Position numbers and translations under genes: made by a program
Part shown: positions 1,500-57,200 of the stretch, piece after piece
How positions within the stretch are numbered: position 1 is the stretch's first letter
How the letters are laid out: the number at the start of each line of letters is the position of its first letter
From: an uncultured virus (IMG/VR IMGVR_UViG_3300020050_008099)
Taxonomy: Duplodnaviria > Heunggongvirae > Uroviricota > Caudoviricetes
DNA length: 64,000 nucleotides
Strand: one strand, 5' to 3'
Virus record (IMG/VR): IMGVR_UViG_3300020050_008099
The notes under the pieces: model-generated
The model's database searches: none
Told to the model about the DNA's origin: nothing
Seen by the model: only the letters and a program-made list of their open reading frames with translations

Positions 1500-1721
1500 A
1501 TGGCCTACCCCATTGGTACAAGAGTTGTCCGAGGCCCCACTTGGGTGTGGTACAATCAAGATGGTGGGATGGGTAATGTAGGGGTTATTTTAGGGGAATT
1601 TTTTGGTGAAAAATGGCAAAAAGTGCAGTGGCCAAACGGCAACGTTCTTGCTTATAGAACTGGTTATGGGTTTCTCGATGTAGTCCCTGTAGAAGTAAAA
1701 CCATTGGAGAGTTTCTTATGA
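1500..1721 (+). CDS. MIB/HERC2-like domain protein with C-terminal KPLESFL tag
   Basis: GTRVVRGPTWVWYNQDGGMGNVGVI...VQWPNG...YR matches the Mib_herc2 pattern. Confidence 0.7.
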   Translation: MAYPIGTRVVRGPTWVWYNQDGGMGNVGVILGEFFGEKWQKVQWPNGNVLAYRTGYGFLDVVPVEVKPLESFL

Positions 1722-1821
1722 TTTACGTCTTGCTTATCATTTGGTGCGTTCTTTGGCCAGTTTTTATTGGCTGGTTCACCTCTCGTAATAAGTATTGGGA
1801 ATGGGTGTGGTTGACTAAGGA

Positions 1822-2082
1822 GTGATCATGGATCAAAATATTCTCTTGACAATGGAGGAGCTTAAAAGACTCTGGAAGTTGTGGGTAAACGACTCGAACC
1901 GTTGGAGGTTCGGACAATACGTCATGCACATGAAACTCCCTGCCATGCACGCCTGTCCAAGTGTTTATTTTGCAGACACTGGAACAGCTTGGGAGCTGTT
2001 ATCAAATCATGCGGCAGGAGTCAAACCTTTGAATGTTATTCGTCTCGGTGGCGGGGAATATTTGGAAGAGTGCTACATCTAA
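1822..2082 (+). CDS. Hypothetical protein
   Basis: ORF with AAGGAG RBS. Confidence 0.6.
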   Translation: MIMDQNILLTMEELKRLWKLWVNDSNRWRFGQYVMHMKLPAMHACPSVYFADTGTAWELLSNHAAGVKPLNVIRLGGGEYLEECYI

Positions 2083-2094
2083 TTTAAGGTTCTT

Positions 2095-2155
2095 AGGTGG
2101 TGTAGACAACAGTTACTTCGTGTGCAGAAAAAATGCTGTTGTCGTTTGTTCCCCT
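2095..2155 (+). ncRNA. Y-RNA-like element, copy 1
   Basis: AGGTGGTGTAG-ACAACAG-TTACTTCG...CTGTTGTC-GTTTGTTCCCCT; upstream of Ro60. Confidence 0.6.
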
Positions 2156-2163
2156 GAATAAAT

Positions 2164-2235
2164 TAATAGGTGCTGTAGTTGTGAGATACTTAGTATTGTA
2201 AACTTTTAAACCTCACAACGCTTGTTGCCCTATTA
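2164..2235 (+). ncRNA. Y-RNA-like element, copy 2
   Basis: TAATAGGTGCTGTAG-TTGTGAG-ATACTTAG...CTCACAAC-GCTTGTTGCCCTATTA. Confidence 0.6.
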
Positions 2236-2340
2236 CAGAGGCAGACCCGGTGGGTGGTAGAAATGGCAGAGGGCTAACGTAAGTTGGTGGGCCTCATGCG
2301 CTCCGGGTGAAGAAATACCCACTCACTTTCTATTGTTCTG

Positions 2341-2406
2341 CTCTTTGTGTCGTAGATAGCACTTACTTAGGCATATTAGATGTGCTGTCGAATCATTACC
2401 AGAGAG
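2341..2406 (+). ncRNA. Y-RNA-like element, copy 3
   Basis: CTCTTTGTGTCGTAG-ATAGCAC-TTACTTAG...GTGCTGTC-GAATCATTACCAGAGAG. Confidence 0.5.
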
Positions 2407-2413
2407 TAGAATT

Positions 2414-2668
2414 ATGGAGATTACTTTAATGATCAACTTTGAAAACTGGGAATTGACTCCCCCAAACAAAAACTTAGGTAACATTTTGTGGAAAGTTCAA
2501 TTTCATAACCAACACATTGGTTATGCCATCAAACGTTGGCGATTTAGCAATCACTTTCTCCTCACCATGATTTCAACAGATTTTTCTGTTTTCCAACGGG
2601 CAGGCATCGTGGCGTTGTTTGACGCAACTTTTGGGGCGAATGGTAACTATTTTACACAAGAGGTGTGA
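2414..2668 (+). CDS. Hypothetical protein
   Basis: ORF coupled to Ro60. Confidence 0.55.
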   Translation: MEITLMINFENWELTPPNKNLGNILWKVQFHNQHIGYAIKRWRFSNHFLLTMISTDFSVFQRAGIVALFDATFGANGNYFTQEV

Positions 2669-4038
2669 TCATGTCTTCACTGAACAAACTTAAAACTACC
2701 CCTATCACCACGCATGGTGGAGGAATTGCCATCCGTCTTTCAAACCTTCAAGAACTTCGTCGTTCTGTCCTCGCTTGCCTTTTGTGGGAGAATCAGTTCT
2801 ACGAAAACGGAGAGGACATTGCTGCTCGTATTCTACGATTGGCAGACAGGGTTACGAAAGAAGAGTTGAGCGAACTAGCTGTGGAAGCCCGAGAGGTGTT
2901 TGGTCTTCGTCACGCACCTCTCCTCCTTCTCTGTGCCCTCATCAAACGTAAGGGAGAGGGTGTCTCCGACACCATCGGTCGTGTAATCAAACGTCCAGAT
3001 GAGATGGGAGAATTACTCTCCATTTATCAAAAGATTGGCAATGTAAAAATTGCAAAGCAACTTCAAAAAGGTTTGGCTAAAGCTTTCGTGAAGTTTGACG
3101 AATACCAATTGGCCAAATACAACCGAGAAGCTAAATGGACTCTACGGGATGTTTTGTTCATCTGCCACGCAAGGCCAAAAACCCCAGAGCAAGATGCGTT
3201 GTGGAAAAAGCTTATCAACAATGAGCTGGCCACCCCACTGACTTGGGAGGTAGAGCTTTCAGCAGGTAAAGACAAGGGGGAGGTTTTCACAAACCTCCTC
3301 AAAGAAAAGAAACTCGGTTATCTGGCCCTCCTTCGCAACCTGAGGAACATGGAACAATCCAATGTGCCCAGAGACCTTGTGAGAGAGGCCCTACAGCGTG
3401 GTAACGCTGGGGGTATCCTCCCCTACCAATTTGTTGCTGCATCGCTTCACGCGCCCTCCTATGCAGCAGAATTGGACAGCAAGATGCTTGACATCTGCAA
3501 CACCCTTCCAAAACTTTCTGGACGAACTGTCCTCATCGTAGATATTTCCGGTTCGATGGGAGCATCCCTCTCTAAACGGGGGACTATGTCTCGTATGGAT
3601 GCAGCTTGTGCCCTTTCTGTTGTTCTTCGTGAATCATGTGACGATATTGCTGTGTATGCAACGGCTGGTAATGATGGTAGACGTACTCATGCTACAGACA
3701 TTGTAGCTGGCTATCGTGGTCTCGGACTCATCCCTGCTATCAAGGCCAAGAACAAAACCCTTGGGGGCGGCGGAATTTTCCTTAAACAGGTGATGGACTA
3801 TATTGGGGAACGTGAGCAGGACGTTGAACGTGTTATCATCATCACAGATGAACAAGACTGTTCAGCCCGTCCTGAAGACCGCCCTTCCAATGCTATTGCT
3901 CTTGGTAAGAGAAACTACATTGTGAATGTAGGCTCTTACGAAAATGGGATTACCAATACCCGAAAAGGTTGGATCAATCTCACTGGATTCTCTGAAAATA
4001 TCCTCCAATACATCCAAATCATGGAGAATGAAGAATGA
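2665..4038 (+). CDS. rsr: Ro60/Rsr TROVE-vWA RNA-binding protein
   Basis: THGGG...LLWENQFYE; FDEYQLAKY; PLTWEVELS; ALLRNLRN; vWA DISGSM and IIITDEQ. Confidence 0.92.
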   Translation: MIMSSLNKLKTTPITTHGGGIAIRLSNLQELRRSVLACLLWENQFYENGEDIAARILRLADRVTKEELSELAVEAREVFGLRHAPLLLLCALIKRKGEGVSDTIGRVIKRPDEMGELLSIYQKIGNVKIAKQLQKGLAKAFVKFDEYQLAKYNREAKWTLRDVLFICHARPKTPEQDALWKKLINNELATPLTWEVELSAGKDKGEVFTNLLKEKKLGYLALLRNLRNMEQSNVPRDLVREALQRGNAGGILPYQFVAASLHAPSYAAELDSKMLDICNTLPKLSGRTVLIVDISGSMGASLSKRGTMSRMDAACALSVVLRESCDDIAVYATAGNDGRRTHATDIVAGYRGLGLIPAIKAKNKTLGGGGIFLKQVMDYIGEREQDVERVIIITDEQDCSARPEDRPSNAIALGKRNYIVNVGSYENGITNTRKGWINLTGFSENILQYIQIMENEE

Positions 4039-4424
4039 ACAGTCTTAGCTGGTTTCTGTATTTTGCAGGGGTTGTGGAGGGCATTGCAGGGGTCTTCTTT
4101 TTTGCAATGGGCGTCTCGATTGTTCTTATCATCGGCAGTTTTGCTTACGGGGCTTTTATCCTAGGGGACCTAAGAGAGTTACCTGTAGGTGCAGAAAAAT
4201 ACTACACCGATATTAGGAACAATGCTTTGAAAAAAGTGTGGATTCCTATCATCATTTGTCTATTTGCTGTGCTTATACCAAGCTCACAAACCCTGTATTT
4301 GATTGCAGGAAGTGAGCTTGGAGAGACAGCAATCAATTCCCCAGAAGCAAAAGCCCTTTACGAAGACATTCGTGGGGTGATTCAATCCTATTCAGTTTTG
4401 TCAGAAGCAAAAGAGATCAAATAA
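4035..4424 (+). CDS. Membrane protein
   Basis: Two hydrophobic segments; IPSSQTLYLIAGSE motif. Confidence 0.7.
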   Translation: MNSLSWFLYFAGVVEGIAGVFFFAMGVSIVLIIGSFAYGAFILGDLRELPVGAEKYYTDIRNNALKKVWIPIIICLFAVLIPSSQTLYLIAGSELGETAINSPEAKALYEDIRGVIQSYSVLSEAKEIK

Positions 4425-4603
4425 TGGAAAAACGTTCCCCCCTTAACATTGGCCGTAGCCGTGAGCGCAACACTCGAAAACAGGCCCGACACACCGAAAA
4501 CGTTGCTTATCGAGCTTCTCTGCACAGGGAGAAGGACTCAGCCGATTTTGTCAAGAAAGACCTTGTACAAAGGAACATCGACGCAATTTCTAAACGAGGT
4601 TAA
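4424..4603 (+). CDS. Small basic hypothetical protein (59 aa)
   Basis: Manual translation MEKRSPLNIGRSRERN...ISKRG; overlaps the upstream stop. Confidence 0.55.
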   Translation: MEKRSPLNIGRSRERNTRKQARHTENVAYRASLHREKDSADFVKKDLVQRNIDAISKRG

Positions 4604-4605
4604 GA

Positions 4606-4852
4606 ATGTTTAAGGTTGGTGAGCTTGTAAGAAGGAAAAAAAGAGTTTTTAGATGAGGGTGGCTGGCAACATTATTGTTTGAGAATCTACAAAAGGGGTA
4701 AAGAAGAGCCTTTTGTAATTGTAGAGGCGTATGATGGTTACGGTGGTAAGCCTGATGCCGCAAGAATCAGGTTCGCTGGCGATAATGCTCGCTGGCAATC
4801 TGAGAGATTTGAACCAGCATACCTCATAAAACCTCTGGAAGATTACCTATGA
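4606..4852 (+). pseudogene. SH3/KOW-like small protein with KPLEDYL tag, +1 frameshift in an A7 run
   Basis: MFKVGELVRRKK; removing one A at 4636-4642 gives EFLDEGGWQ...YLIKPLEDYL*. Confidence 0.7.
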
Positions 4853-5028
4853 TCGTTGTTGCACACTCAGAAAGACATTGGCCAAGACCTTTCATTGTAA
4901 TGCAAAGAACTCTTATGAAAGGTTGGATTGTCCTAGGAAGAGAAGAGACACGAGAAAAAGCCGAAGAATTTGCCCTTTTGTGTAAAACCACCCCGACAAA
5001 ACTGAAAAACCTGTCAGACTTTTTATAG
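4849..5028 (+). CDS. Small protein (59 aa) with C-terminal KNLSDFL tag
   Basis: Manual translation MIVVAHSERHW...KLKNLSDFL*; ATGA coupling. Confidence 0.65.
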   Translation: MIVVAHSERHWPRPFIVMQRTLMKGWIVLGREETREKAEEFALLCKTTPTKLKNLSDFL

Positions 5029-5037
5029 GAGATAATA

Positions 5038-5382
5038 ATGTCTGCACTTGATCACCGTCATGCTCTGAAGTTCTCCCTCTTGGGGGTTATCCAACAACAA
5101 CGAATTCTTGCCCGTCTTGAAAAAGACTACAAGAAAAAACCTCTTCAAAACGCTGAGGATAACCGAGCGGATGTGATGCGTTGGCATCGTCGTGTCCGTC
5201 TTAGCCGAGAGGCTCGTGCCATCAACCTCTACAGGGCCTTCCTCAAAGGAATTCCCTATATGAAGGTGGAGACCAACATTCGAGAAGAATCTCTAGACCC
5301 CATTTGTGTGTTTCGAGATTACTACAACCAAACCATGTTACCAAAAGACGAGTGGGAATCCTTCGTTAAATGGGTTGGTTAA
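5038..5382 (+). CDS. Hypothetical phage protein
   Basis: AGGAG RBS; EARAINLYRAFLKGIPYMKVE motif. Confidence 0.7.
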   Translation: MSALDHRHALKFSLLGVIQQQRILARLEKDYKKKPLQNAEDNRADVMRWHRRVRLSREARAINLYRAFLKGIPYMKVETNIREESLDPICVFRDYYNQTMLPKDEWESFVKWVG

Positions 5383-5389
5383 GGAAAGA

Positions 5390-5428
5390 GTCCCCCTTAA
5401 CCGGGGGACAATTTCTTTTTTTTTTTTT
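5390..5428 (+). terminator. Rho-independent terminator
   Basis: GTCCCCC-TTAACC-GGGGGAC followed by a T tract. Confidence 0.75.
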
Positions 5429-5473
5429 CGTGTCCTCGCCACAGTGTAGGCAAAGTGTCATAATAAATCTTTC

Positions 5474-5555
5474 GGGTGTGTACCTGAGCCGCCTTCTAAG
5501 CGGACGTTAAATCAGTAATTGGAGTATGCGGGTTCGAGTCCTGCCACGCCCACCA
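5474..5555 (+). tRNA. Atypical D-armless tRNA-Arg(TCT)-like RNA
   Basis: GGGTGTG/CACGCCC-A-CCA acceptor; CCGC-CTTCTAA-GCGG anticodon arm; GCGGG-TTCGAGT-CCTGC T arm. Confidence 0.65.
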
Positions 5556-5600
5556 TTCCCATACATTGTGTCGGGAGTTCAAATCTCTCCGGGGATACCA
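5555..5600 (+). ncRNA. tRNA remnant or minihelix (acceptor plus T arm only)
   Basis: ATTCCC/GGGGAT-A-CCA; GGGAG-TTCAAAT-CTCTC. Confidence 0.5.
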
Positions 5601-5621
5601 ATAAAGAAATTGAGGTGTTAT

Positions 5622-5819
5622 ATGGAATCCTATTGGTTTAACATTAAACTAACCTTGTTACAAAAACTTAAAATTCAGCTTAGAATTGCCGATGAAAAAG
5701 CTGGTTACCCTTTCTCTGAAGCAATGTATACAAGTATAATAGACTACGAGAGTCGAACGGGGAAGTCTTTTGGAGTGGAGTTAGAGATTTTAGAGAGGGC
5801 TGCCGATGGAGCTTTTTAA
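5622..5819 (+). CDS. Hypothetical protein
   Basis: GAGGTG RBS before ATG 5622. Confidence 0.6.
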   Translation: MESYWFNIKLTLLQKLKIQLRIADEKAGYPFSEAMYTSIIDYESRTGKSFGVELEILERAADGAF

Positions 5820-6037
5820 ACGAGGAGATTTTGTCGTTAGGTCTAAAGAGCATTTTACCTCCGCTTGGTTAACAGCTTGTGAACAAGTTGGGGCCTCCCC
5901 AGAATCTCCAAGACGTGTAATCCGTTGTGATGGTGACGGAGATATGGTTCTCTACGGAATGTTAACTACGTGGGGGAGTTGGTGTTTTTTTTTCGTCACA
6001 CACACCTGACTTAAAACCTTTGGAGGATTACTTGTGA
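5806..6037 (+). pseudogene. SH3/KOW-like small protein with KPLEDYL tag, +1 frameshift in a T9 run
   Basis: MELFKRGDFVVR...; removing one T at 5985-5993 gives ...SSHTPDLKPLEDYL*. Confidence 0.7.
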
Positions 6038-6324
6038 TCGACGAGGTAAATTTTCTTTTTCGCTGCCTACAGAACAACCTTGAAGAGGGTACACTTTTTG
6101 AGAACTTACCACATTCTCTCCAAGAAAGAAAAAACCTCTTAAGAAAAATCTACTTACAAGGTAACAAGTCTCTTCTTAATAGGCATTTCAACTTCTCTTG
6201 TTGTCAAAAGTTTTATCATGTATTTTTACGTGATTTATACTTAGGATACCCAGGAAGTATGAAAAGCTGGTCTGACGCCTTTGAGAAGGTTGACCACCCA
6301 GAACCCCTCGAAAGTTTTTTGTAA
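6034..6324 (+). CDS. Hypothetical protein with PEPLESFL tag
   Basis: ORF track; coupled start. Confidence 0.65.
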   Translation: MIDEVNFLFRCLQNNLEEGTLFENLPHSLQERKNLLRKIYLQGNKSLLNRHFNFSCCQKFYHVFLRDLYLGYPGSMKSWSDAFEKVDHPEPLESFL

Positions 6325-6333
6325 GGAAATTCT

Positions 6334-6714
6334 ATGAAACTATTCACCTACGGCTCCCTTAAAACAGGCTATTGGAACAATCGAATTCTTGAGGGAGCAA
6401 CGTCCCTTGGGAAGGCAGTTACGAAAAAACCTTACACCCTTGTTGATGTAGGTTTTCCCTACGCTCTGACCCAAAAGATTGGACATCCTCAAAAACCTAT
6501 CATAGGTGAGGTGTTTGAAATTGACGATAACCACCTGCTACGGTGTGACCGTTTGGAGGGGCACCCAAATCATTACGTTAGACGTAAGGTTATGGTTCGC
6601 TTAACTGATTTAGACGAAGAGGTGGAAACGTTCATCTACGAGTATGATGGAACTGGTAGACAAGCTTCGTTATGTCAAGTGGATGATAATGGTTATTATT
6701 ACTGGGCGGGTTAA
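6334..6714 (+). CDS. Gamma-glutamylcyclotransferase (AIG2/GGACT-like)
   Basis: LFTYGSLKTG...N; GEVFE; DRLEGHP..YVR. Confidence 0.9.
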   Translation: MKLFTYGSLKTGYWNNRILEGATSLGKAVTKKPYTLVDVGFPYALTQKIGHPQKPIIGEVFEIDDNHLLRCDRLEGHPNHYVRRKVMVRLTDLDEEVETFIYEYDGTGRQASLCQVDDNGYYYWAG

Positions 6715-6781
6715 TTAAAAACCCCTAGTTATATATAGTCAGATTTTAGGGTTTGTCAAGGGGTAAATATAAATTTATTTT
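6710..6781. repeat. 72-bp element, exact reverse complement of 38252-38323; holds a sigma70-like promoter on the - strand
   Basis: Base-by-base comparison; TTGACA...TATATA on the - strand. Confidence 0.9.
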
Positions 6782-6796
6782 CTAAGGAGATAAGGC

Positions 6797-7021
6797 GTGT
6801 TTAAAGTAGGGGATTTAGTTGTTTTAGTAGAAGAACTTCGGAAAAGGTCCGATTGGAAAAATTTTCTCAAAAAATACTATAAAAAATCTCCAACAGATGT
6901 TTTTCGGATTAGAAAAATCATAAACGATGAACTTGTAATTATAGAAAACTGCGATATACCTTGGAACACCTGCTGCATTAAATTCGTCCCAGCACCACCA
7001 TCACTTGAAAGTTTTCTTTGA
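6797..7021 (+). CDS. SH3/KOW-like small protein with PSLESFL tag
   Basis: MFKVGDLVVL start; AAGGAG RBS. Confidence 0.7.
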   Translation: MFKVGDLVVLVEELRKRSDWKNFLKKYYKKSPTDVFRIRKIINDELVIIENCDIPWNTCCIKFVPAPPSLESFL

Positions 7022-7305
7022 TGCAAGATGTTTATTTTCGTTTTATAACCGATTACCTAGCTGGAAAAATACGCAATTATGACCACATAAGACACCCCGT
7101 AAAAACCCCCTATGACACTCTTTTCAGGATGTGTTATGGACCACACACCAGAGACGCTATTATGAGTTCATGTTCTTGGGGGGGTGTGGGAGAACACTAT
7201 GAAATAGATTTAGGAATTTGGCACGTACAGGGTTATGTGCCCGAAGATTTCAAAAGGGTGTTTAACGAGATAACTTCCCCAAAACCCTTAACAGATTTCT
7301 TGTAA
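7018..7305 (+). CDS. Hypothetical protein with KPLTDFL tag
   Basis: ORF track. Confidence 0.65.
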   Translation: MMQDVYFRFITDYLAGKIRNYDHIRHPVKTPYDTLFRMCYGPHTRDAIMSSCSWGGVGEHYEIDLGIWHVQGYVPEDFKRVFNEITSPKPLTDFL

Positions 7306-7317
7306 CAGGAGAATCAA

Positions 7318-8196
7318 ATGTCTGTAGTTATGCTTCGTCGTCGTAAACTTGGGAGAACTTCTTGCAACGAAATCGCAAGACTTTCTCAAAAACAAATTCA
7401 AGTGGTCAGAAATGACCAACAATTCCCCGCTGACACGAACCTTGTTATTCGTTGGGGAACCACCTCAAATGTCCCCTGTCGTAATGTAGTAAACACCGCA
7501 GAGGCAATCCATCGTGTTGGGGATAAAGCAGGTTTTCGTCGGGTGTTGATGAGTCAGGAGGGTGTGTTACAAAACCGTGACAAACTTCTATGCCCACACA
7601 CATTTTTTGCAGACTATGGCTATGGCGCGGGATTAGAGGATGGGGTTAACTATCCTGTAGTTGTCCGTCCTCGTGTTCACGCTCAAGGCAAGCATGTTTA
7701 CTTGTGTAATAATCGAGCAGAACTTGATAATGCTATCCGTCGTTGCGGTGAAGGTTGGTATGCCTCCTCCTATATCAACAAGGTTGCAGAATATCGTGTA
7801 GCCTTTGTTCAAGGACGTGTAGCATGGGTCGCCCGCAAAACTCCCGGTAACCCAGAAGATGTGGCTTGGAACGTTGCTCGTGGGGGGCGTTTTGACAATG
7901 TTCGTTGGGATGAATGGCCTTTGAAAGCTGTGAGAGTTTCTCGTGAAGCTTTTATGCTCTCTGGTCTTGACTTTGGTGGTGTTGACGTTATGGTAGATGC
8001 TGCTGGTAATGCTTATGTTCTTGAAATCAACTCCGCCCCCTCTCTGACAAGTCCCTACAGACAAGAGTGTATGGCAAAGTGTTTTGATTGGGTTATCGAA
8101 TACGGAAAACAGAATCTTCCTATCACGGAAGCGCGTGGTGGATGGAAAAAATTCATTCATCCTGCACTCACTAATGAAGCAATTATGGTGGTCTAA
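7318..8196 (+). CDS. ATP-grasp peptide ligase (RimK/phiEco32-like)
   Basis: YPVVVRP..H.QG; EYRV; GLDFGGVDV...YVLEINSAP. Confidence 0.9.
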   Translation: MSVVMLRRRKLGRTSCNEIARLSQKQIQVVRNDQQFPADTNLVIRWGTTSNVPCRNVVNTAEAIHRVGDKAGFRRVLMSQEGVLQNRDKLLCPHTFFADYGYGAGLEDGVNYPVVVRPRVHAQGKHVYLCNNRAELDNAIRRCGEGWYASSYINKVAEYRVAFVQGRVAWVARKTPGNPEDVAWNVARGGRFDNVRWDEWPLKAVRVSREAFMLSGLDFGGVDVMVDAAGNAYVLEINSAPSLTSPYRQECMAKCFDWVIEYGKQNLPITEARGGWKKFIHPALTNEAIMVV

Positions 8197-9048
8197 ATGA
8201 CTGTATTTTTAGAGGAACAACGTAAAGAGTTTAGGAAGTTTGACAGCACTTCTAGCAACAACGTCACTCTTGGAGGTGTTCGAGGCGAGAGTCAGTCTGT
8301 TTGGATGGAAAATGGCCCTTGTCATGGTGGTTATTCAAAGGGGAATTGCAGGGATGTGAAATATCTTATCTGGGGTCCAAGACTTAAGAAAAACTTGATG
8401 CCGGACCCTGAGCGAAAACTTTTCACTGAATGGTTGACGAAAGAATCCCCGTGGGCACCTGTTTTCTTGTCTAAAGATTGGGAAGAAATCAAACAATATG
8501 GTTTTGTTGGTCGAACCGACCTCCCGGAAAATTTTGTGATTTCAGCTTGCATTGCAAGCCGATTTACTTATGAGAGTTACTGTGATTTCTCAGGCATTCG
8601 GGCTGTTTGGAGGTCTTTGATTGCTGCAGGGGTAAGTTTGGAAGATGCTTACCTATTTAGTCATCTGCTCCTTAAAGAGGGTAAAGGCTGGAAAGTTGGG
8701 GCTTTTTCCACAGGGCATTCCCCTTTTAACCTTTCTACAGTTCAGGAGGATGCTTACAGAAATTACTGGGCAAAAAATCTTGGTAGCCCCTCTCCTAGAA
8801 CCTTTTTCGATAATGGTGGTTACGGTGGGTGCGGTTATTCGGCATACAGCCTTTTCTCAAATAAAAACTCTTCCTCCTCGTACTCAGGGGCTTTTTACAA
8901 GAGAATTCTCTCGATGAGACCTAAAAGTTTAAATATGGCGATTAATCATAACATCTTTAAACTTGAGGACAAGGCTGGGTATCTTCTTACAAACAAAGAA
9001 GACCTTTTTTCTATCATTGACCAAATCAAGGAAGCTGTTCATGCCTAA
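8197..9048 (+). CDS. Hypothetical protein within the amidoligase cluster
   Basis: Long ORF in operon; no recognised motif. Confidence 0.7.
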   Translation: MTVFLEEQRKEFRKFDSTSSNNVTLGGVRGESQSVWMENGPCHGGYSKGNCRDVKYLIWGPRLKKNLMPDPERKLFTEWLTKESPWAPVFLSKDWEEIKQYGFVGRTDLPENFVISACIASRFTYESYCDFSGIRAVWRSLIAAGVSLEDAYLFSHLLLKEGKGWKVGAFSTGHSPFNLSTVQEDAYRNYWAKNLGSPSPRTFFDNGGYGGCGYSAYSLFSNKNSSSSYSGAFYKRILSMRPKSLNMAINHNIFKLEDKAGYLLTNKEDLFSIIDQIKEAVHA

Positions 9049-9658
9049 AGTTCTTATTGTGGGTGGAGATCACCTCATCGAAGATATGTTTCGTAAACGT
9101 GGGTGGGAGATTGTTTCTTCCACAGGTGCTGAACCAGATTTAGTTCAATTCACTGGTGGTGCAGATGTTTCACCAGCGTTTTACCACGAAGCAAAGCATC
9201 CAGCTTCTCACACAGACCCACGAAGGGATGAGTATGAATTTGGGATTTTCCACCAGTATATCAACAAACCCAAAGCTGGGATTTGTCGTGGTGGACAATT
9301 CCTTAACGTAATGTGTGGTGGTAAAATGTGGCAACATGTGGATAATCACACACGTTCTCACAAAGCTCTTTCCTATTTGCATGGCACCGTTGTTGATGTT
9401 ACGTCAACACATCACCAAATGATGCGTCCAAGCGAAGCTGCAAATATTTTAATGGTGGCTGATCCGAGGGTTTCTACATATAAACAATCTGCTACAGAAA
9501 CTTCAGTTTCTCAAGATTTGGATATTGAAGCTTGTTTTTACGACAAGGCTCTAGCCCTTTGCTATCAACCACACCCTGAGTATACCCATTTTGAATCTGA
9601 ATGTCAGAATGTGTATTTTGACTATTTGTCTACTTTCCTGAATCTTCGCAAAGGTTGA
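9041..9658 (+). CDS. Class I glutamine amidotransferase / peptidase C26 (gamma-glutamyl hydrolase-like)
   Basis: FTGGADV; GICRGGQFLNV; STHHQM; QPHPE; likely start ATG 9041. Confidence 0.9.
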   Translation: MPKVLIVGGDHLIEDMFRKRGWEIVSSTGAEPDLVQFTGGADVSPAFYHEAKHPASHTDPRRDEYEFGIFHQYINKPKAGICRGGQFLNVMCGGKMWQHVDNHTRSHKALSYLHGTVVDVTSTHHQMMRPSEAANILMVADPRVSTYKQSATETSVSQDLDIEACFYDKALALCYQPHPEYTHFESECQNVYFDYLSTFLNLRKG

Positions 9659-9662
9659 AAAT

Positions 9663-11126
9663 ATGTGCGGTTTAGTCGGAGTAATGTCTAGCAATCTTGC
9701 AGACAATCATAAGAAAATGTTTCACAATATGCTACATTTTGATGTCCTTCGTGGGGAGGATAGCACAGGTGTAGCTTGCATTGGGGGTTTGAATACACAG
9801 CAACCCCCCTCCGTAGAAGTTTTCAAAACTGTAGGGCCTCCCACTGAACTGTTCTTTTTTCATGGGGTTGGTGCAAAGAGAGATGTACTTTCGCACAAAC
9901 CCACCCAAATTTTGCTTGGACATAATCGGTTTGCCACGCAGGGACAAATCAACGAAGACAATGCACACCCATTTGATTTTCCAAATCTTGTGGGGGCGCA
10001 TAATGGGACGTTGCAAAAATACCAAATGTCGGATTTTGTTGATGCAAAAACCTATGATGTAGATTCGCAAATTCTTTTCAGTGAAATCTCGCACCAACAA
10101 GACGTGCGACCTGTCTGGGAACAAGTAAATGGTCCTATGGCCCTTACTTGGTTTGATAAACTTACCAAGAAATTGCATCTTGCCCGTAACAAAGAACGTC
10201 CTCTGTTTTACGCTATTACAGAAGATAAGAAAAGCTTGTTCTGGGCTTCAGAATCTTGGATGATTATCGTTGGAGCTTTGCGAAATAACATCAAGATTCA
10301 CGACGTTCAAAACCTTCCTGTAGAAGTTCTTCACACCATTTCCTTTAATGAGAAGGGAGAGATTTTAATTTCGGTAGAAGACCTGCCGAAATATAAAATC
10401 AAACCTTTTTCGCAAGGTTACTACCAACAAGGTTACAAAGGCTTGTATGGTAGAATGTGGGACGATGAAGACGACGAGTGGAGCCTCTGGAACAGATACA
10501 ACAAAGAAGAGGCGGCTGACAAAAAGCGAGAGGAAACTCCTCCGAAAGCAAAATCAGACTCGAAGGTAATTCCAGATTGTCTGATTATCACGGAGGTTCA
10601 CAAGCCAGATGATAAGAGCCACTTCCTAGTGGCTATAGGAGAGGCTCCTGATGGCCGTGAGGTGAAGATTGTGGTGGAACCCAAGGATCAAGAGGAAGCC
10701 CTCAAAAAGATGGTTGGGAGAGGTCTACAAGGCTACTACACTTCTCTGGAAATTTACAGGTCAGAGTTGCACAACCACGACAAGAAAATCCCTCCGTTTT
10801 TTGTGCATTGGTCCAAGCTTAACTGGGCTAAGTCTAAAGATGGGTTTAAGATTGTTCGTAAGAACAATGGTGGTTGGATTGTTTCAAAGACTATGAAAAC
10901 CGAAACTACATCCTCTGAAATTCCCAAAGAGTCTGAAGTTGCTCCTTGGTTTGGCAATGCAGTGTTTATCAGCAAAACCTCTTGGGAAGGTTTTGTTGAC
11001 AGTGGTTGTGACTGTTGTGGACGACATGTTACATGGGAAGAACGACACAATCTTGTGTGGAAAGATAAGTTGGTGTTTATCTGCCCAACTTGTAAAGAAG
11101 AACCTCAAATTCAGAAAACAGCTTAA
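9663..11126 (+). CDS. Class II (Ntn) glutamine amidotransferase
   Basis: N-terminal MCGLVG; RGEDSTG; GHNRFAT; NAHPF; HNG; DS. Confidence 0.92.
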   Translation: MCGLVGVMSSNLADNHKKMFHNMLHFDVLRGEDSTGVACIGGLNTQQPPSVEVFKTVGPPTELFFFHGVGAKRDVLSHKPTQILLGHNRFATQGQINEDNAHPFDFPNLVGAHNGTLQKYQMSDFVDAKTYDVDSQILFSEISHQQDVRPVWEQVNGPMALTWFDKLTKKLHLARNKERPLFYAITEDKKSLFWASESWMIIVGALRNNIKIHDVQNLPVEVLHTISFNEKGEILISVEDLPKYKIKPFSQGYYQQGYKGLYGRMWDDEDDEWSLWNRYNKEEAADKKREETPPKAKSDSKVIPDCLIITEVHKPDDKSHFLVAIGEAPDGREVKIVVEPKDQEEALKKMVGRGLQGYYTSLEIYRSELHNHDKKIPPFFVHWSKLNWAKSKDGFKIVRKNNGGWIVSKTMKTETTSSEIPKESEVAPWFGNAVFISKTSWEGFVDSGCDCCGRHVTWEERHNLVWKDKLVFICPTCKEEPQIQKTA

Positions 11127-11135
11127 GGTGTTACA

Positions 11136-12020
11136 ATGAAAATCAACGGCTACGAATTTATGATTGGCGCTGACCCGGAATTTTTTGTTCGTCGCGGAGG
11201 TCAAGTGGTTTCGGCCTATGGCTTGGTCCCCGGAACGAAAGACAGGGCATACCCTGTAAAAGGTGGGGCTGTTCAAGTTGATGGTATGGCTTTGGAGTTT
11301 AATATCAACCCCGCCAATACAGCAGCAGAGTTTGAGGAAAGTATGTCCTCTGTGCTTGCTCAGATCACAAGCATGGTCCCCGGTTATGAAGTCTTCACAG
11401 AAGATGTTGAAAAAGCCGGGTTGCAAGCCAAGCTTCCCAAGTCTGTCGCAGATTTTGATCGAGGCTATATCGAGGCGCAACCCAAAGAAGCCAAGGAACT
11501 TGGATGTAATCCCGACTTCAATGCTTACACTCGCAAGGAGAATCCCAGACCAAATGCAGAATTCCCCTTCCGCACGGCTTCTGGGCACGTCCATATTGGG
11601 TGGACTAAAGGCGTTGACGTAAATGATCCCGGACATTTGGAAGCTTGCTATTCTCTTGTGAAAGCCCTCGACTTATTCTTAGGGGTTCCTAGCCTTGTTT
11701 GGGATACCGAGGACCGTCGTAGAGAGTTGTATGGGCAAGCAGGGGCTTTCCGACCGAAACCCTATGGTTTGGAATATCGAGTTCTGTCTAACAAATGGAT
11801 CACCAGCCCGCTGCTTCGTAAGCTTGTTTACTGGAACACTATCGAAGCTATTCGGGCTACATTCAAAGACCCTAAAATTGGGGAGAGCCTTTTTGGTGAT
11901 ATGACTGCTAAAGATATTATCAACAAGACGAAAGAAAATTGGAGCGTCGCAGCCTCCTCCGTGCTAGGCTATGGCGGTGTCCGTGGTCCAAAATGGTATC
12001 GAGAAAACACGCCTTCGTGA
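11136..12020 (+). CDS. phiEco32-like COOH-NH2 ligase type 2
   Basis: IGADPEFF; VQVDGMALEFN; GCNPDFNAY; RTASGHVHIG; FRPKPYGLEYR. Confidence 0.92.
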   Translation: MKINGYEFMIGADPEFFVRRGGQVVSAYGLVPGTKDRAYPVKGGAVQVDGMALEFNINPANTAAEFEESMSSVLAQITSMVPGYEVFTEDVEKAGLQAKLPKSVADFDRGYIEAQPKEAKELGCNPDFNAYTRKENPRPNAEFPFRTASGHVHIGWTKGVDVNDPGHLEACYSLVKALDLFLGVPSLVWDTEDRRRELYGQAGAFRPKPYGLEYRVLSNKWITSPLLRKLVYWNTIEAIRATFKDPKIGESLFGDMTAKDIINKTKENWSVAASSVLGYGGVRGPKWYRENTPS

Positions 12021-12029
12021 GGAAAAATT

Positions 12030-12626
12030 ATGGTAAAGATGTATTATGGGGATGATCTGGACTACATTGTCAAGAGACTCACTCACACATTAGTCCAAAC
12101 CCACGAGAAAAGACCTGTTTGGGTTTACTCGGTGGTTGGAGATTCCTCAAAAGGTATCAGTGTTATCTGCAAAGATTTAATCACTGGTCTCAGTGATCAA
12201 GTGGTAGACTTGCACAAAATTGACTTAGAGCCTGTAAAGCTTGGCTACTTCTTCGACAATGTACGTGGTCGGGCTGTGTTTTCTGCTCGGAAACCTATGA
12301 GAAGGGATTGGAAACAAGGTTTATCCACCGCAAGTGCTATTTTCTCTGACGGCAGACGTTTAGGAGATTATGAGCTTAAAGCTATGGTTCAACCTATCAC
12401 GAACAACTATTCAAGTTTGCCTGAACAATTGAATAAGTTTCAAAAAGAGCCGCAGGTCGAATCTGTCCCACTCTCTCGTAACTTTGCCTTACGTAATACT
12501 AAAGTTAAACAACTGCTGTATCGAGATTCAGTTGTTGGGGAGATGCAAAAAAATGTAGCTGTGTTAAGTTCCAAGTATTTCTTTCTTTCCGAACAGTTTC
12601 AAAAAGAGGTGAAACATGCTGGCTAG
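12030..12626 (+). CDS. Hypothetical protein in the amidoligase cluster
   Basis: LGY...RKPMRRDWKQGL motif. Confidence 0.7.
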   Translation: MVKMYYGDDLDYIVKRLTHTLVQTHEKRPVWVYSVVGDSSKGISVICKDLITGLSDQVVDLHKIDLEPVKLGYFFDNVRGRAVFSARKPMRRDWKQGLSTASAIFSDGRRLGDYELKAMVQPITNNYSSLPEQLNKFQKEPQVESVPLSRNFALRNTKVKQLLYRDSVVGEMQKNVAVLSSKYFFLSEQFQKEVKHAG

Positions 12627-13467
12627 TCTTCTTGGGGTGACTGAAACCTCTGGTGAAATTGGTGTCGAAATTGAAGTGGAGGGTTCTCGGCTGCCCAATT
12701 CAGATATGGTTGGTAAGCTGTGGAGATGTGAAGCAGACCCCTCCTTACGTGGGGAGAGCTGTGAGTATGTTCTTAGAAAACCTTTGGATCGTCCAGAAAT
12801 TGCACTAGCCCTAGATGCTTTGTCCAAAGCTTACGACAGAAATCGAACGTCGGTAACCAATGGTTATCGTGCTGGTATTCACATCCATGTCAACGTGCAG
12901 GATTTAACTCCGAGACAACTTATCAATTTTATCACTCTTTATTTCATGTTTGAAGAGTGCCTGATTCGTTTTTGTGAGCAAAGTCGTCTTGGAAACCATT
13001 TTTGTCTTCGGGTTTCTGATGCTAGTCATATTGTAACACTTCTTACTAAAGCGATTACTACTGGCAACTTAAGGATTCTAAATACTGACGAAATTCGGTA
13101 TAGCAGTCTAAACCTCACTGCATTGTTCAAATACGGGTCAGTGGAATTTAGAGCTTTGGAATCTACAAACGACTGGGGTAAAATCCTCACTTGGATTGAC
13201 CTTCTCCTGTCGTTAAAGAAACATGCGAAAACGGTGGAAAATCCCACAGACCTTTTAGGCAATTGTAGCGCCGAAGGACCGGAAAAATTTGCTAAAACAG
13301 TTTTTGGTAAGTTTTACCCAATCCTTAAAAACCATCTTGTGGGGTTGGATGTCGAAGAGTTAATTTATGAAGGTGTGAGAAATATTCAATTTCCAATTTT
13401 CTCTCGGGACTGGAACCTCAAAAATTTGAATATTTTTAGGTTGCAAGAAGATATTTTTGCGGGGTAA
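12616..13467 (+). CDS. Putative amidoligase (Amidoligase_2, glutamine synthetase-like fold)
   Basis: GVEIEVE; DPSLR; EYV; GIHIHVN; RYSSLN...GSVEFR. Confidence 0.9.
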   Translation: MLASLLGVTETSGEIGVEIEVEGSRLPNSDMVGKLWRCEADPSLRGESCEYVLRKPLDRPEIALALDALSKAYDRNRTSVTNGYRAGIHIHVNVQDLTPRQLINFITLYFMFEECLIRFCEQSRLGNHFCLRVSDASHIVTLLTKAITTGNLRILNTDEIRYSSLNLTALFKYGSVEFRALESTNDWGKILTWIDLLLSLKKHAKTVENPTDLLGNCSAEGPEKFAKTVFGKFYPILKNHLVGLDVEELIYEGVRNIQFPIFSRDWNLKNLNIFRLQEDIFAG

Positions 13468-13470
13468 GCT

Positions 13471-13767
13471 ATGTATTATAAATTTACTGGGTTAAAAGAT
13501 GAGAATGGGGAATTGTTAACCAGTTTCTATGACCACCCAGACTGTGAAGATTTCTACGACGATGATGAGGATGACTATGTTTTTCCTTCATATTACGAAC
13601 CGTATGAGTTTTTTGGACTAAGACTTGGGGATGTTATCTTCCGATCAACTACCTTCAGAGACATAATGATGTTTGTCCCCATACATAGCCCACATAAAAG
13701 GGTCTATGGACTCTCGGAAAATGAGTTTGAGCCAGCAGAAGTGAAAAAATTAGAAGAATTTTTGTAA
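13471..13767 (+). CDS. Acidic hypothetical protein with KKLEEFL tag
   Basis: ORF track. Confidence 0.65.
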   Translation: MYYKFTGLKDENGELLTSFYDHPDCEDFYDDDEDDYVFPSYYEPYEFFGLRLGDVIFRSTTFRDIMMFVPIHSPHKRVYGLSENEFEPAEVKKLEEFL

Positions 13768-13774
13768 TGGCCCC

Positions 13775-13803
13775 TTGACAAAACAAGATTTTACACTATA
13801 TAG
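13775..13803 (+). promoter_or_regulatory. Sigma70-like promoter ahead of the replication genes
   Basis: CCCCTTGACAAAACAAGATTTTACACTATATAG; resembles the core of the 72-bp element. Confidence 0.6.
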
Positions 13804-13814
13804 GATATATAAGA

Positions 13815-14051
13815 ATGTTCAACGTATCTGACGATGTCGTGGTGACGGAAAGACCTTATGGATGGCTTAACGCTGGTTGGTTTGCAGACCAAAACTTAAA
13901 CAAAATGGTTTTTAGAGTTGTGTCTACTGGCAGAGCTGCGGCACTTATTTCTCGTCTACAACCAAATGGGAAACCTTCTAAACACAAAAGGAGGATGGAA
14001 AATAAGTTTCTTCGACATGTTAACTTAAAACCTTTGGAGGATTACTTGTAA
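13815..14051 (+). CDS. SH3/KOW-like small protein with KPLEDYL tag
   Basis: MFNVSDDVVV start. Confidence 0.7.
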   Translation: MFNVSDDVVVTERPYGWLNAGWFADQNLNKMVFRVVSTGRAAALISRLQPNGKPSKHKRRMENKFLRHVNLKPLEDYL

Positions 14052-14054: not shown

Positions 14055-15014
14055 ATGAGTGGAATTCAAATTGATGCGCTTGCGCATAGTTGTGGTACAA
14101 AAAAGGGCTTAAAAGTTTTTGCCCAAGAAGATGGAACAGTTAATGGTTTTTGTTTTAGTTGTTCCACTTTTGTTGGCGACCCTTACGGGGATGGTAGAAC
14201 TGTAAAAGACTTACCAAAAAGAGTTGAAAAGACTGAGGCAGAGGTTCAAGCAGAAATAGCTGAAATTTCTGGTTATCAAATTTTTGACTTACCCTCTAGA
14301 AAGCTTAGGGCTAAAACCTTAGAAAAATTCGGGGCAAAAATCTCTGTTTCTGAACGAGATGGAACAACCCCAACGGCTGTGTATTGGCCAATCACAAAAG
14401 CTGGAAAACTTTGTGGTTATCATGTCAAATCAGTGGACAAAAAATTCAACCCTTATAACATTGGTAACACAGTAGATTGTGACTTAATCAATTGGGAAAA
14501 TGCTAAGGGTAGTGGGGCTTACAAACTAATCATCACAGAGGGTCCAGAAGATATGGCCTCGGTGGATAGAATTTTTGAGCTGCACGGAGACCCAAAATTT
14601 GCTCCTGCGGTCTGTTCGCTTCCACATGGAGCGTCTAGTGCAAGAAAAGTCTTGGGCAAACATGCCGAAGAAATCAAACGGACTTTTAAGGAAGTTGTGT
14701 TTTGTTTTGATAACGACACTCCCGGACAAAATGCTGTTGAAAAGGGTATGATTATTCTGCCCCACGCTAAATCAGTCATCCTGCCTACCAAAGATGCTAA
14801 CCAAGCTTTGGTGGAAGGAAAGGCTAAAGCTGCATACAATGCCATTGCTTTCCACGCAGACACCCCAAAAAACACTAGGTTGGTTTTTGGCTCAGACCTG
14901 CATGAAAAAGCGAGGGAGCCTGCCAAATTTGGTGATCTGTCTTGGCCTTGGACCAGAATGAATCAAGCCCTTCGGGGCATCCGATACGGAGAAACGATTT
15001 ACTTAGGAGCGGGT
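14055..15014 (+). CDS. Primase-helicase exon 1 (Zn finger, TOPRIM)
   Basis: HSC...CFSC; IITEGPED; FCFDND; KDAN; ends YLGAG. Confidence 0.9.
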
Positions 15015-15738
15015 TAATTGGCTCGCTATAAACATATTTAATTGCTGGAACACCCTAACGTAAAGACGAGGGCAATCAGCAGCGAAGACTAAGACCTCTG
15101 TAATTGGAGGTGACTATGATACAAATTAAAGATTTTCCTAACTACGCTATTACAATATGTGGGCGTGTTTGGTCTTACAACAGAAACAGATTTCTCGTTG
15201 GGGGCTTAGATAAAGATGGCTACAAGTTGTGGACAGCCTGTCACAAAGGTAACAGAAAAACTTTGAGGTTTCATCAAGAGGTAGCGAAAGCTTATCTCCC
15301 AAACCCTCAAAAGTTCTCTGTAATAAACCACAAAAACGGTATAAAGGAAGATAATAGAGTGTGCAATTTGGAGTGGTGTAGTATTAGCCACAACACAAAA
15401 CATGCTTACCTACTAGGTGGGTTAAATCAGTCGGGTGAAAATAATAATGCCTGCAAATACTCAGACACCCTTGTAGACGTGATTAAACAAAATTATACGG
15501 GAGGTAGTATAGCAGAGTATGCAAGGATTCTAGAAATCCCTTACTCTGTAGTATACTCGTATATTAAAGGTATCAGAAGGTCTTAGTAACGTTCAACGAC
15601 TATCCCGAAAGGGAGTAGGGCCAAGTGGTCCGAAACGGTATGCACCTTTAAGGTGAAGATATAGTCTGGTCTGTATGGAGACATATAGCAGTTCATAAGA
15701 GAACGGGTTGAGATTAACGACCTCAGTTGAACACAACG
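15015..15738 (+). mobile_element. Group I intron carrying an HNH homing endonuclease
   Basis: P1 gcgggt|taattggctcgc with U.G pair; AATTGCTGGAA, AATCAGCAG, TTCAACGACTA, AAGATATAGTC core; terminal G15738; splicing restores Walker A GAGVKMGK. Confidence 0.9.
15104..15586 (+). CDS. Intron-encoded HNH homing endonuclease
   Basis: INHKNGIKEDNRVCNLEWCSISHN. Confidence 0.9.
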   Translation: MEVTMIQIKDFPNYAITICGRVWSYNRNRFLVGGLDKDGYKLWTACHKGNRKTLRFHQEVAKAYLPNPQKFSVINHKNGIKEDNRVCNLEWCSISHNTKHAYLLGGLNQSGENNNACKYSDTLVDVIKQNYTGGSIAEYARILEIPYSVVYSYIKGIRRS

Positions 15739-16485
15739 GTTAAGATGGGTAAGGGTGAGGTTAGAAATGCTTTAGCCGCACATTTTATGAAAAACCATGA
15801 GATTAAAGTCTTCATGGCTTCCCCAGAAGAGGCCAACCCTAAAACCTATAAAATGGTTGCAGGTAAATTAGTAAACAAATTTTTCCACGATCCAGAAATT
15901 CCCTTTGACTATGAAGCTTACGATAGAGCAGGGTTAATCCTTAAAGATCGTTTAGCAATGGTTAATCTTTACCAACACATTGGTTGGGAATCTCTTCGTA
16001 AGGATATGATTGCGGCGACAGAGTGGGGAGCTAAGGCACATTTTATTGACCCTATTACAAACCTAACAAACGGGGTTAATTCAGCAGAAGCCAACACAAT
16101 GTTGCAAAGTATTGCACAAGATATTAGTGCCTTAGCATTAGACCTTAATATCACGGTCTTTATGTATTGTCACTTAAAAGCCCCGGAGGGTAATATTTCT
16201 GCAGACCAACGGCTTAATAAGTATAAGCAAGGCAAATACATTGGTTTAGGGAATTGCCCACACGAACTTGGTGGTGATGTCCTTTCGTCTCAGTTTGCGG
16301 GTTCCCGCGCAATGATGCGTAGTGCAAACTTGATGATTGGTATTGAGGGTAATAAAGACCCAGACCTTCCAGATGAGATTAGAAACATCAGAAACTTAAG
16401 GGTTTTGGAAGATCGTGAGTTTGGTGTTAGTGATAAATTTCCAGTGTATTGGAATCGTTTAACAGGGAGTTTTGAGGAACTTTAG
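15739..16485 (+). CDS. Primase-helicase exon 2 (DnaB/T7 gp4-like helicase)
   Basis: VKMGKGE; FIDPIT; YCHLK; FAGSRAMMR. Confidence 0.88.
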   Translation, partial: VKMGKGEVRNALAAHFMKNHEIKVFMASPEEANPKTYKMVAGKLVNKFFHDPEIPFDYEAYDRAGLILKDRLAMVNLYQHIGWESLRKDMIAATEWGAKAHFIDPITNLTNGVNSAEANTMLQSIAQDISALALDLNITVFMYCHLKAPEGNISADQRLNKYKQGKYIGLGNCPHELGGDVLSSQFAGSRAMMRSANLMIGIEGNKDPDLPDEIRNIRNLRVLEDREFGVSDKFPVYWNRLTGSFEEL

Positions 16486-19319: not shown

Positions 19320-19329
19320 GGTAAAAATA

Positions 19330-38035: not shown

Positions 38036-38280
38036 TCTTCCTTAGACTGTTGTAAAAGTCTACCAATAGCCCCTAACACAGCAATCATTGTAATAAGGTA
38101 TGGATACCAGTCGTATTGACTAAGAAGAACGGTCACCTCTGGCGGGACCACTGCCCAGATGATAGGAAGAGCGGCCAATACAGCAAAGGCTTGCATAGAC
38201 CGCCATTTCCAAAAAGATTTCCAATTGTCTACAAGTTTCATGTGAACCCCTAAAATAAATTTATATTTACCCCTTGACAA
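38032..38280 (-). CDS. Putative holin (likely start ATG 38241)
   Basis: MKLVDNWKSFWKWRSM; two transmembrane segments; GRLLQQ. Confidence 0.7.
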   Translation of the reverse strand: MSRGKYKFILGVHMKLVDNWKSFWKWRSMQAFAVLAALPIIWAVVPPEVTVLLSQYDWYPYLITMIAVLGAIGRLLQQSKEE

Positions 38281-54146: not shown

Positions 54147-54162
54147 GATGAACCCCTGAATT

Positions 54163-57197: not shown

Positions 57198-57200
57198 TAA

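Follow-up and report, generated by a model that had tools for sequence, protein, structure and literature searches.

A peptide-selected C-terminal tail on small early proteins around the amidoligase module of an uncultured podophage

Introduction

The DNA studied here, called the window below, is a stretch of 64,000 nucleotides from the IMG/VR record IMGVR_UViG_3300020050_008099, an uncultured virus of the Caudoviricetes. In its early region nine small proteins end in one and the same kind of peptide, L-[EST]-[SDE]-[FY]-L directly followed by the stop codon, which we call the tail, and their genes are interleaved with or flank a cluster of peptide ligase and amidotransferase genes, called the amidoligase module. 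What keeps one ending on so many different proteins, and what reads it? Our results demonstrated that the tail is selected as a peptide in the window's clade, that related lineages carry other tails on similar proteins, and that a very similar peptide stands at the end of the amidoligase itself in relatives without tailed small proteins. We tentatively read the tail as a portable recognition peptide of the module.

The module resembles that of phiEco32/LUZ24-type phages in having a COOH-NH2 ligase type 2, an Amidoligase_2, a class-II glutamine amidotransferase (GATase), a C26 peptidase, an ATP-grasp ligase and a gamma-glutamyl cyclotransferase (GGCT). Two of its enzymes were matched in 319 and 341 of 50,697 phage records, including Pseudomonas, Escherichia and Vibrio phages. 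A comparative study of the phage amidoligase module is reportedly that of Iyer, Abhiman, Burroughs and Aravind in 2009. In the available portions of papers that cite this study, a role of the module in cell-wall or protein modification is proposed and no experiments are described, and the same portions mention neither a shared tail on small proteins nor an acidic tail on the amidoligase (PMC10580990, PMC4431377). The literature covered here gives no tested function for the module. It also yielded no description of such tails, with the qualification that the 2009 study lay outside it and may bear on this.

Results

The tail closes nine frames of the window

Six-frame translation of the window gives 13 occurrences of the strict motif, nine of which stand immediately before a stop codon. 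All nine close frames on the plus strand, whose stops end at 1721, 4852, 5028, 6037, 6324, 7021, 7305, 13767 and 14051, exactly where the initial annotation of this DNA had placed them. That annotation had also described the ending as absent from the other open reading frames (ORFs), and indeed no further frame of at least 30 codons in the window has it. Based on the plus-strand composition, only 0.027 terminal motifs were expected in the 896 frames of at least 20 codons, and 2000 within-frame residue shuffles gave a mean of 0.036 and a maximum of 2. The enrichment over shuffled C-termini, which had been suggested as a check, is thus borne out.

Seven of the nine tail frames are intact ORFs and the remaining two need a change of frame, as had been claimed. 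The body of 4606-4852, which starts MFKVGELV..., runs into an A7 run at 4636-4642 and that of 5806-6037 into a T9 run at 5985-5993, and the frames break there. In the contigs of relatives that are about 92-93% alike, from three public runs of two studies, one base is missing at 4636 and four are missing at 5985, and both bodies are in frame with their tails. Because these contigs restore both frames, the two breaks go back either to assembly errors or to homopolymer mutations of the strain, and the tail family counts nine members in the window. A contig identical to the window terminates within the T run, and the public sequencing runs contain at most 24% of the words of 4400-6200.

Distribution of the tail among related phages

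For the comparison, 79 IMG/VR loci were collected by an amidoligase profile and two named relatives were added, and 83 sources were counted. Exactly seven of the 83 sources have the pattern L-x-x-[FYW]-[LIMV]-stop at least six times on the gene strand; the other 76 have it once or not at all, and the opposite strand gives 0-2 matches per source. The window has eight such tails and the frameshifted one, and its six relatives have 14 (L004), 6 (L005), 14 (L009), 8 (L010), 9 (L011) and 10 (L012). These seven sources form one branch in a quick amidoligase tree (SH-aLRT 98), referred to here as the window's clade, and the six related IMG/VR phages spell the tail L-E-D-[YWF]-[LM]. In whole contigs all tails belong to small genes of the early region, which flank the module on either side; one relative carries 15 of them. 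Neither of the two nearest named phages, KZY1 and Pseudomonas phage GP100, has such tails.

Each tail protein of the window has only two close homologues (79-88% identical), and in the two of tail protein 9 (79-85% identical) the tail is kept. Scans of IMG/VR with narrow tail patterns, which are a weak test, found no tagged phage without the module; they returned one multi-tail contig, that of L004, and 10 single matches without the module. In three related IMG/VR contigs (L107, L110 and L113) one 179-residue protein each ends in K-S-L-E-D-Y-L, and no amidoligase module lies in the stretch covered.

The tail is selected as a peptide

The codons and positions of 72 tails of the window's clade were analysed. 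Leucine at -5 is written CTA in 21 tails, TTA in 17, TTG in 15, CTT in 10, CTG in 4 and CTC in 2. Five of these codons (TTG, CTG, CTC, CTT and TTA) had already been noticed for the motif leucines in the window, and the clade uses six, which argues for selection on the peptide and not on a ribosome-binding site (RBS). Position -2 is Tyr, Trp or Phe, encoded by five codons, and position -1 is Leu or Met, encoded by seven codons, plus one Val. Positions left free by the search pattern are biased as well. Of the 72 tails, 52 have E and 8 have D at -4, 42 have D and 17 have E at -3, 29 have K and 16 have T at -7, and 44 have S, P or N at -6.

Overlap with translation signals is common. The tail overlaps the next start in 45 of the 72 cases, a Shine-Dalgarno (SD)-like tetramer lies inside 40 of 72, and GAG is preferred over GAA at -4 (37 versus 15). 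This is more than the roughly three copies for which the initial annotation had allowed an overlapping RBS, but the motif is not explained by it. Among the genes of the clade with a downstream gene within 15 nt, the tail occurs on none of the 73 large ones as against 56 of the 95 small ones, and among the 21 tails whose next gene is at least 6 nt away or missing, an SD-like tetramer is present in only four. In the window itself, four tails (those ending at 5028, 6324, 7305 and 13767) lack such a tetramer; for three of these the next gene has an RBS of its own, and after 13767 no gene starts within 47 nt. The codon variety together with the restriction to small genes bears out the earlier statement that selection acts on the peptide rather than on a DNA repeat, and in the window's clade the tail is selected as a peptide.

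The tail sits on diverse bodies

After removal of the last eight residues, 71 proteins of the window's tail type (type A) fell into 47 BLAST components, 38 of them singletons. The largest group has an SH3-like body of the form MFKVGDxVxRK...W...FxLV, followed by a short variable linker and then the tail. The F-x-x-G-D-x-V type strand, which had been ascribed to five of the nine window bodies, does open five of them. A profile of the class-A body found 320 representatives among 1.84 billion proteins. Among the best 150 of these 320, 107 are small proteins, of which 70 end in the tail, one in ENE and 36 otherwise, and 42 are larger proteins with one to four untagged copies of the domain; tailed hits are favoured in these counts because the profile included the tail columns.

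Other lineages carry other tails

A motif-free search for shared C-terminal 7-mers, in which internal control 7-mers never clustered above two, gave clusters of at least three in 15 sources, seven of them A-type. In L014 ten proteins end in [ST]-K-E-D-L-L. Ends of the form ...E-N-E were found on 16, 6 and 11 proteins of L019, L032 and L035, and L022-L025 have ...L-E-N-K ends; these are called the E/N clade below. In the fifteenth source, L076, three paralogues share a similar end. In L082 a related motif, ...M-D-E-Y-L, is followed by 2-18 further residues. The cultured Salinivibrio phage CW02 (L115, 2-10907) has at least eight small genes whose products end in P-x-[LI]-L-E-[ED]-N-[VILA], e.g., LLEENV, and these lie among genes for a GATase, a COOH-NH2 ligase, an amidoligase, an ATP-grasp ligase and a GGCT. 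The tailed genes of the E/N clade are likewise interleaved with the ligase genes, and its endings occur on none of 42 large genes as compared to 40 of 74 small ones.

Bodies without their tails match across tail types in 22 pairs. The best match joins a protein ending ...KELEEYL to one ending ...NLIVENE (E 2.4e-11), and another joins ...EQLEDWL to ...ITKEDLL (E 7e-7). Homologous bodies therefore carry the tail of their own genome, which means that the tails of one genome change together.

The amidoligase of untagged relatives carries a similar peptide

The amidoligase ends in E-P-x-x-[DN]-[YFIV]-COOH in 15 of the 63 untagged loci and in none of the 16 tagged ones, and none of the 943 other large proteins of all these loci has this end. 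With a looser definition, an acidic and then a hydrophobic end, the counts are 22 of 63 versus 0 of 16 (Fisher p 0.004, by a test that ignores relatedness, the tagged loci representing about four lineages). The commonest amidoligase end, ...N-E-P-L-E-D-Y, belongs to the GP100 group, which includes Pseudomonas phage GP100, and resembles the K-P-L-E-D-Y-L of the window minus its last residue. The ATP-grasp ligase of this group likewise has an acidic end closed by F or L. The amidoligase of the window keeps only a remnant. This complementarity in cis and in trans, with the peptide either on the enzyme or on the small proteins, speaks more strongly than any other result for assigning the tail to the module.

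Search for the reader

A 59-residue protein encoded at 4424-4603 was considered as a clade-specific candidate and rejected, since it is missing from a 98%-complete relative. Co-folding of a single pair, the ATP-grasp ligase and the tail protein of 6797-7021, scored 0.00 twice, which is uninformative either way.

Two replication proteins have acidic ends of their own. The 240-residue protein of 19291-20013, which is similar to single-stranded DNA-binding protein (SSB) and has no Pfam match, closes with an acidic run and then Trp, and 45 of 56 relatives do so too. In every clade the helicase (15727-16485) ends in G-x-F-x-E-hydrophobic. Both ends are reminiscent of the acidic tails on T7 gp2.5 and gp4. 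They are constant across the tail types and are probably read by a different site.

Discussion

We favour, tentatively, a view of the tail as a portable C-terminal recognition peptide which belongs to the amidoligase module and docks non-covalently onto a conserved reader of the module. The features recognised would be Leu at -5, the acidic residues at -4 and -3, the aromatic residue at -2, Leu or Met at -1 and the free carboxylate. A short stretch rich in Lys, Pro and Ser would link this peptide to fast-evolving small early proteins, many of them predicted to be SH3-like barrels. The putative reader could be a part of the ligase module that is conserved, or else a partner onto which the amidoligase itself has to dock, and the variable bodies may act as interchangeable adaptors or regulators which bring targets to one site of the enzyme set or compete for it. 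Three parts of this proposal, namely a single reader, its place within the module and a non-covalent contact, are what we infer from the pattern of the ends. Every copy ends alike, so a single reader would suffice for all of them. As nearly the same peptide stands on the amidoligase of untagged relatives, a module component, or the docking partner of the amidoligase, is the most likely reader. Non-covalent docking is favoured because the fixed positions are the hydrophobic ones, the acidic ones are replaceable, and the Lys/Pro/Ser stretch precedes them, which has the appearance of a short docking motif with an important free end.

Several results weigh against this proposal. The module occurs without tagged small proteins in 67 of the 83 sources, so the tail set is an optional layer, and 41 of the 63 untagged amidoligases lack the acidic end as well, hence the module works without the peptide. 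The initial annotation, which had seen a modular tail tied to the ligase cluster, thus holds as to the modularity (47 components of diverse bodies) and the tie, and needs amendment in that the cluster can dispense with the tags. All loci were sampled via the amidoligase, so the co-occurrence of tail and module is not measurable from them. The relatedness that the Fisher test leaves aside reduces the weight of the comparison. Among ORF families within 10 kb of the amidoligase none is specific to the tagged loci (the best phyletic p, about 1e-3, belongs to four-locus families of small proteins, and tblastn of the window proteins agrees), and no module protein groups by tail type; since no family tracks the tail and no module protein groups by it, there is no positive pointer to the reader. 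Outside the window's clade the tail DNA doubles as the RBS and start of the next gene. It is nearly fixed as nnG GAG AAT GAA/AAA TRA in the E/N clade, where in L035 the -4 residue varies and its codon still ends in G, and as GAG GAG AAT GTA TGA in CW02. Such fixed DNA makes selection on the peptide less certain for these tails and the generalisation past the window's clade weaker. Finally, the tail may pack on its own protein body.

If the contact were covalent, the tail would be a ligase substrate or carrier arm, with its alpha-carboxylate or its Glu/Asp side chains extended, amidated or joined to an amine. We consider this unlikely, and still a serious rival, because a RimK-like ligase is present and the LysW-LysX pair offers a precedent. 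RimK, which acts on ribosomal protein S6, offers one parallel, and LysX with the EDWGE tail of its partner LysW and PafA with Pup offer two more. In the LysW case the ATP-grasp partner reads the tail by a loop of the GSWGR type. Pup is a small protein which ends in GGQ or GGE and whose C-terminus is bound by a carboxylate-amine ligase of the glutamine-synthetase-like superfamily (PafA/Dop). The cluster studied here has two ligases of that superfamily; unlike Pup, the tails show no GGQ or GGE, they sit on many different small proteins and their bodies are folded and not disordered. LysW-type carriers end in EDWGE, and this motif is recognised by the RimK-family enzymes LysX/ArgX and by later enzymes (PMC10433800). 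The E-D-W-[LM] form of the tail resembles it. As in the LysW/LysX system, small proteins with an E-D-W/Y-type end here adjoin a RimK-like ATP-grasp ligase, along with two carboxylate-amine ligases. Moreover, the peptide stands at the extreme C-terminus in four tail types, and on the amidoligase's own end it could be a self-substrate. As compared to LysW, however, the tails of the window's clade end in Leu or Met, never in Glu (0 of 72), the window's tail proteins show no Cys4 zinc site of the LysW kind, and each genome has 9-15 different bodies instead of one carrier. No acid is invariant, as -4 is not E in 20 and -3 is neither D nor E in 13 of the 72 tails, and the hydrophobic positions are the fixed ones; the last residue varies by clade (L/M, E, K or V), and in L082 another 2-18 residues follow the related motif. 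Docking to a hub of the host, such as a protease or unfoldase, the replisome or RNA polymerase, seems somewhat unlikely to us; the proximity of the ligases would then merely reflect a shared early region, and the hosts would differ by clade. It agrees with the finding that no phage gene family tracks the tail, and phage replication proteins (the 19291-20013 family and the helicase) already use acidic-aromatic ends. The acidic tails that tether proteins to hubs, i.e., the tip of bacterial SSB, the ends of T7 gp2.5 and gp4 and the clamp-binding ends of T4, are likewise short, C-terminal, and acidic and then aromatic or hydrophobic. Unlike these, the present tails are carried by many fast-evolving accessory proteins and not by core replication proteins, and their spelling depends on the clade. 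The host-hub explanation leaves the amidoligase ends of the untagged relatives unexplained, as against none among 943 other large proteins, and the SSB-like and helicase tails stay the same across clades whose small-protein tails differ. The likeness to T4 clamp-binding tails proposed earlier is not supported by the phage's own genes, as Pfam scans of 85 different ORFs found no clamp family. The clamp-tail consensus, whether of the T4 type or the bacterial QL[SD]LF, has Leu where the window tail is acidic at -4. A likeness to the H-NS end had also been proposed, and Pfam gave no Histone_HNS match of E 0.01 or better for any of the tail proteins.

That the tail is without function of its own, either a product of paralogue ancestry and RBS/start constraint or the last structural element of a shared fold, appears very improbable. 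The overlaps with the next start, the SD-like tetramers and the preference for GAG described above would be expected from it, as would the nearly fixed DNA of the E/N and CW02 tails and the descent of many bodies from one SH3-like family. However, large genes with the same need for coupling lack the tail, the tail is also kept in genes whose successor has an RBS of its own or that have no next gene, and its Leu, aromatic and terminal positions vary in DNA and not in residue class. The bodies, of 57-140 residues, have no detectable similarity across the 47 components, and larger proteins hold the same domain without the tail. A more specific form of the recognition peptide, which we regard as quite unlikely, makes the module a protein-modification machine whose SH3-like adaptors would grip different host or phage proteins and present them to the ligases through the shared peptide, as a phage counterpart to the substrate receptors on a ubiquitin-ligase scaffold. 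Peptide and reader would then drift together between lineages, and lineages without adaptors would keep the peptide on the end of the amidoligase.

The module-docking proposal, if true, would account for a set of ORFan early genes by placing them in one functional class. The peptide is a concrete biochemical handle, serving as a bait for the reader and as a candidate ligase substrate. CW02 is cultured and has its tails interleaved with the module, and GP100-type phages carry the peptide on the enzyme, so both forms are testable at the bench. Such tails are lacking from E. coli phage 172-1 (Kuravirus).

Module genes and genome context

The features of the tail and module region are listed in Table 1. 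The initial annotation had named a GGCT, an ATP-grasp ligase, two GATases, a COOH-NH2 ligase and an amidoligase, and Pfam confirms every one of them.

Table 1. Tail proteins and module genes of the window
Feature	Position	Strand	Remarks
Tail protein 1, 73 aa, ends VKPLESFL	1500..1721	+	MIB_HERC2-type SH3-like barrel (Pfam)
Tail protein 2, class-A SH3-like body, ends IKPLEDYL	4606..4852	+	Broken at A7 4636-4642
Tail protein 3, 59 aa, ends LKNLSDFL	4849..5028	+	Next gene with own RBS downstream
Tail protein 4, class-A SH3-like body, ends LKPLEDYL	5806..6037	+	Broken at T9 5985-5993
Tail protein 5, 96 aa, ends PEPLESFL	6034..6324	+	
Gamma-glutamyl(amine) cyclotransferase	6334..6714	+	Pfam GGACT E 3e-19
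Tail protein 6, 74 aa, class-A SH3-like body, ends PPSLESFL	6797..7021	+	
Tail protein 7, 95 aa, ends PKPLTDFL	7018..7305	+	
RimK-like ATP-grasp ligase	7318..8196	+	PF08443; phrog_2599
Module protein, 283 aa, fold without family; invariant C42, R122, H174	8197..9048	+	
Peptidase_C26 / class-I glutamine amidotransferase-like	9041..9658	+	Pfam; longest ORF begins 8963
Class-II glutamine amidotransferase, starts M-C; C-terminal half without Pfam match	9663..11126	+	
COOH-NH2 ligase type 2 (PF14395)	11136..12020	+	Pfam, PHROGs
Module protein, 198 aa, phrog_11055, confident mainly-beta model	12030..12626	+	
Amidoligase_2 (PF12224), ends ...LQEDIFAG, without acidic E-P-L-E-D-Y tail	12616..13467	+	
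Tail protein 8, 98 aa, ends VKKLEEFL	13471..13767	+	No gene start within 47 nt downstream
Tail protein 9, 78 aa, ends LKPLEDYL	13815..14051	+	Two database homologues keep tail

The MIB_HERC2 match of tail protein 1 (PF06701) has E 4.5e-13 and 49.3 bits at a cut-off of 33.5, and the other eight tail proteins gave no Pfam match save one sub-threshold hit. The GGACT gene is present in five other contigs of the window's clade and has no tblastn match (E 1e-4) in KZY1 or GP100. The RimK-like ATP-grasp ligase is 65-74% identical inside the tagged clade, and it matches PF08443 with 33.5 bits at a cut-off of 21 and phrog_2599 with E 1.1e-20. For the COOH-NH2 ligase type 2, the Amidoligase_2 and the class-II GATase the Pfam E values are 5.4e-10, 1.4e-12 and 3.9e-14, all above the curated cut-offs, and PHROGs gave E 3e-77 and 1.2e-71 for the COOH-NH2 ligase and the amidoligase. 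PF14395, PF12224 and the class-II GATase thus lie in one operon, the combination by which a phiEco32-type module is recognised.

The 283-residue module protein has a confident model (pLDDT 86), for which Foldseek against the PDB returned nothing at E 0.001 or better. VIA-align gave Z values of at most 4.8, and the likeness to PafA (4.0), Dop (3.5) and glutamate-cysteine ligase, which were among the long alignments (Z 3-4), is weak; hhalign against either ligase family gave a probability of at most 1%. It is possibly a divergent or new catalytic fold. The 198-residue protein was found in 79 of the 83 sources and has an invariant R-x-P-x-R loop; its likeness to EF-P, eIF5A or Tudor folds is weak (model pLDDT 94, E 0.02 or worse), and these assignments were set aside.

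The window represents about one whole genome of a phiEco32/SU10-like podophage of 64 kb. Proteins identical to those of the window sit on a 64,093-base contig, and IMG/VR contigs of 64.4-64.6 kb, rated 98-100% complete, contain homologues of its ORFs as far as about 61 kb. The late genes are SU10/phiEco32-like (portal and adaptor). Among the early and middle genes are those of a phage sigma factor, a T7-type primase-helicase, a family-A polymerase and the amidoligase module. Megablast of the region against named phages gave no match, and phage sigma factors do not carry the tail.

The primase-helicase gene (14055-16485) is split into two ORFs by an HNH endonuclease gene at 15104-15586, and the family-A DNA polymerase gene (16941-19319) is split likewise by one at 18266-18772. 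A TROVE/Ro60-like protein is encoded at 2665-4038 (Pfam E 2e-14, phrog_850 E 3e-42, with a weak vWA match), and 1.4 kb from it lies a tRNA-like element at 5474-5552, which reaches 31.3 bits in Rfam against a gathering score of 29 and gave no ARAGORN call. This element may be a Y-RNA-like partner of the TROVE/Ro60-like protein. In related contigs other tRNA-like letters replace 5421-5438. A 90-base stretch at 5294-5382, the end of the ORF of 5038-5382, is repeated in inverted orientation with 95% identity at about 38252-38342 in the late region. The G+C content is 0.47-0.62 in 1-1400 and 54000-64000 as compared to 0.40-0.46 elsewhere in the window; the ORFs at 59064 and 60449, inside the G+C-rich end, have homologues in related phages, and tRNA genes for Thr, Leu and Asn are located in 57657-63029.

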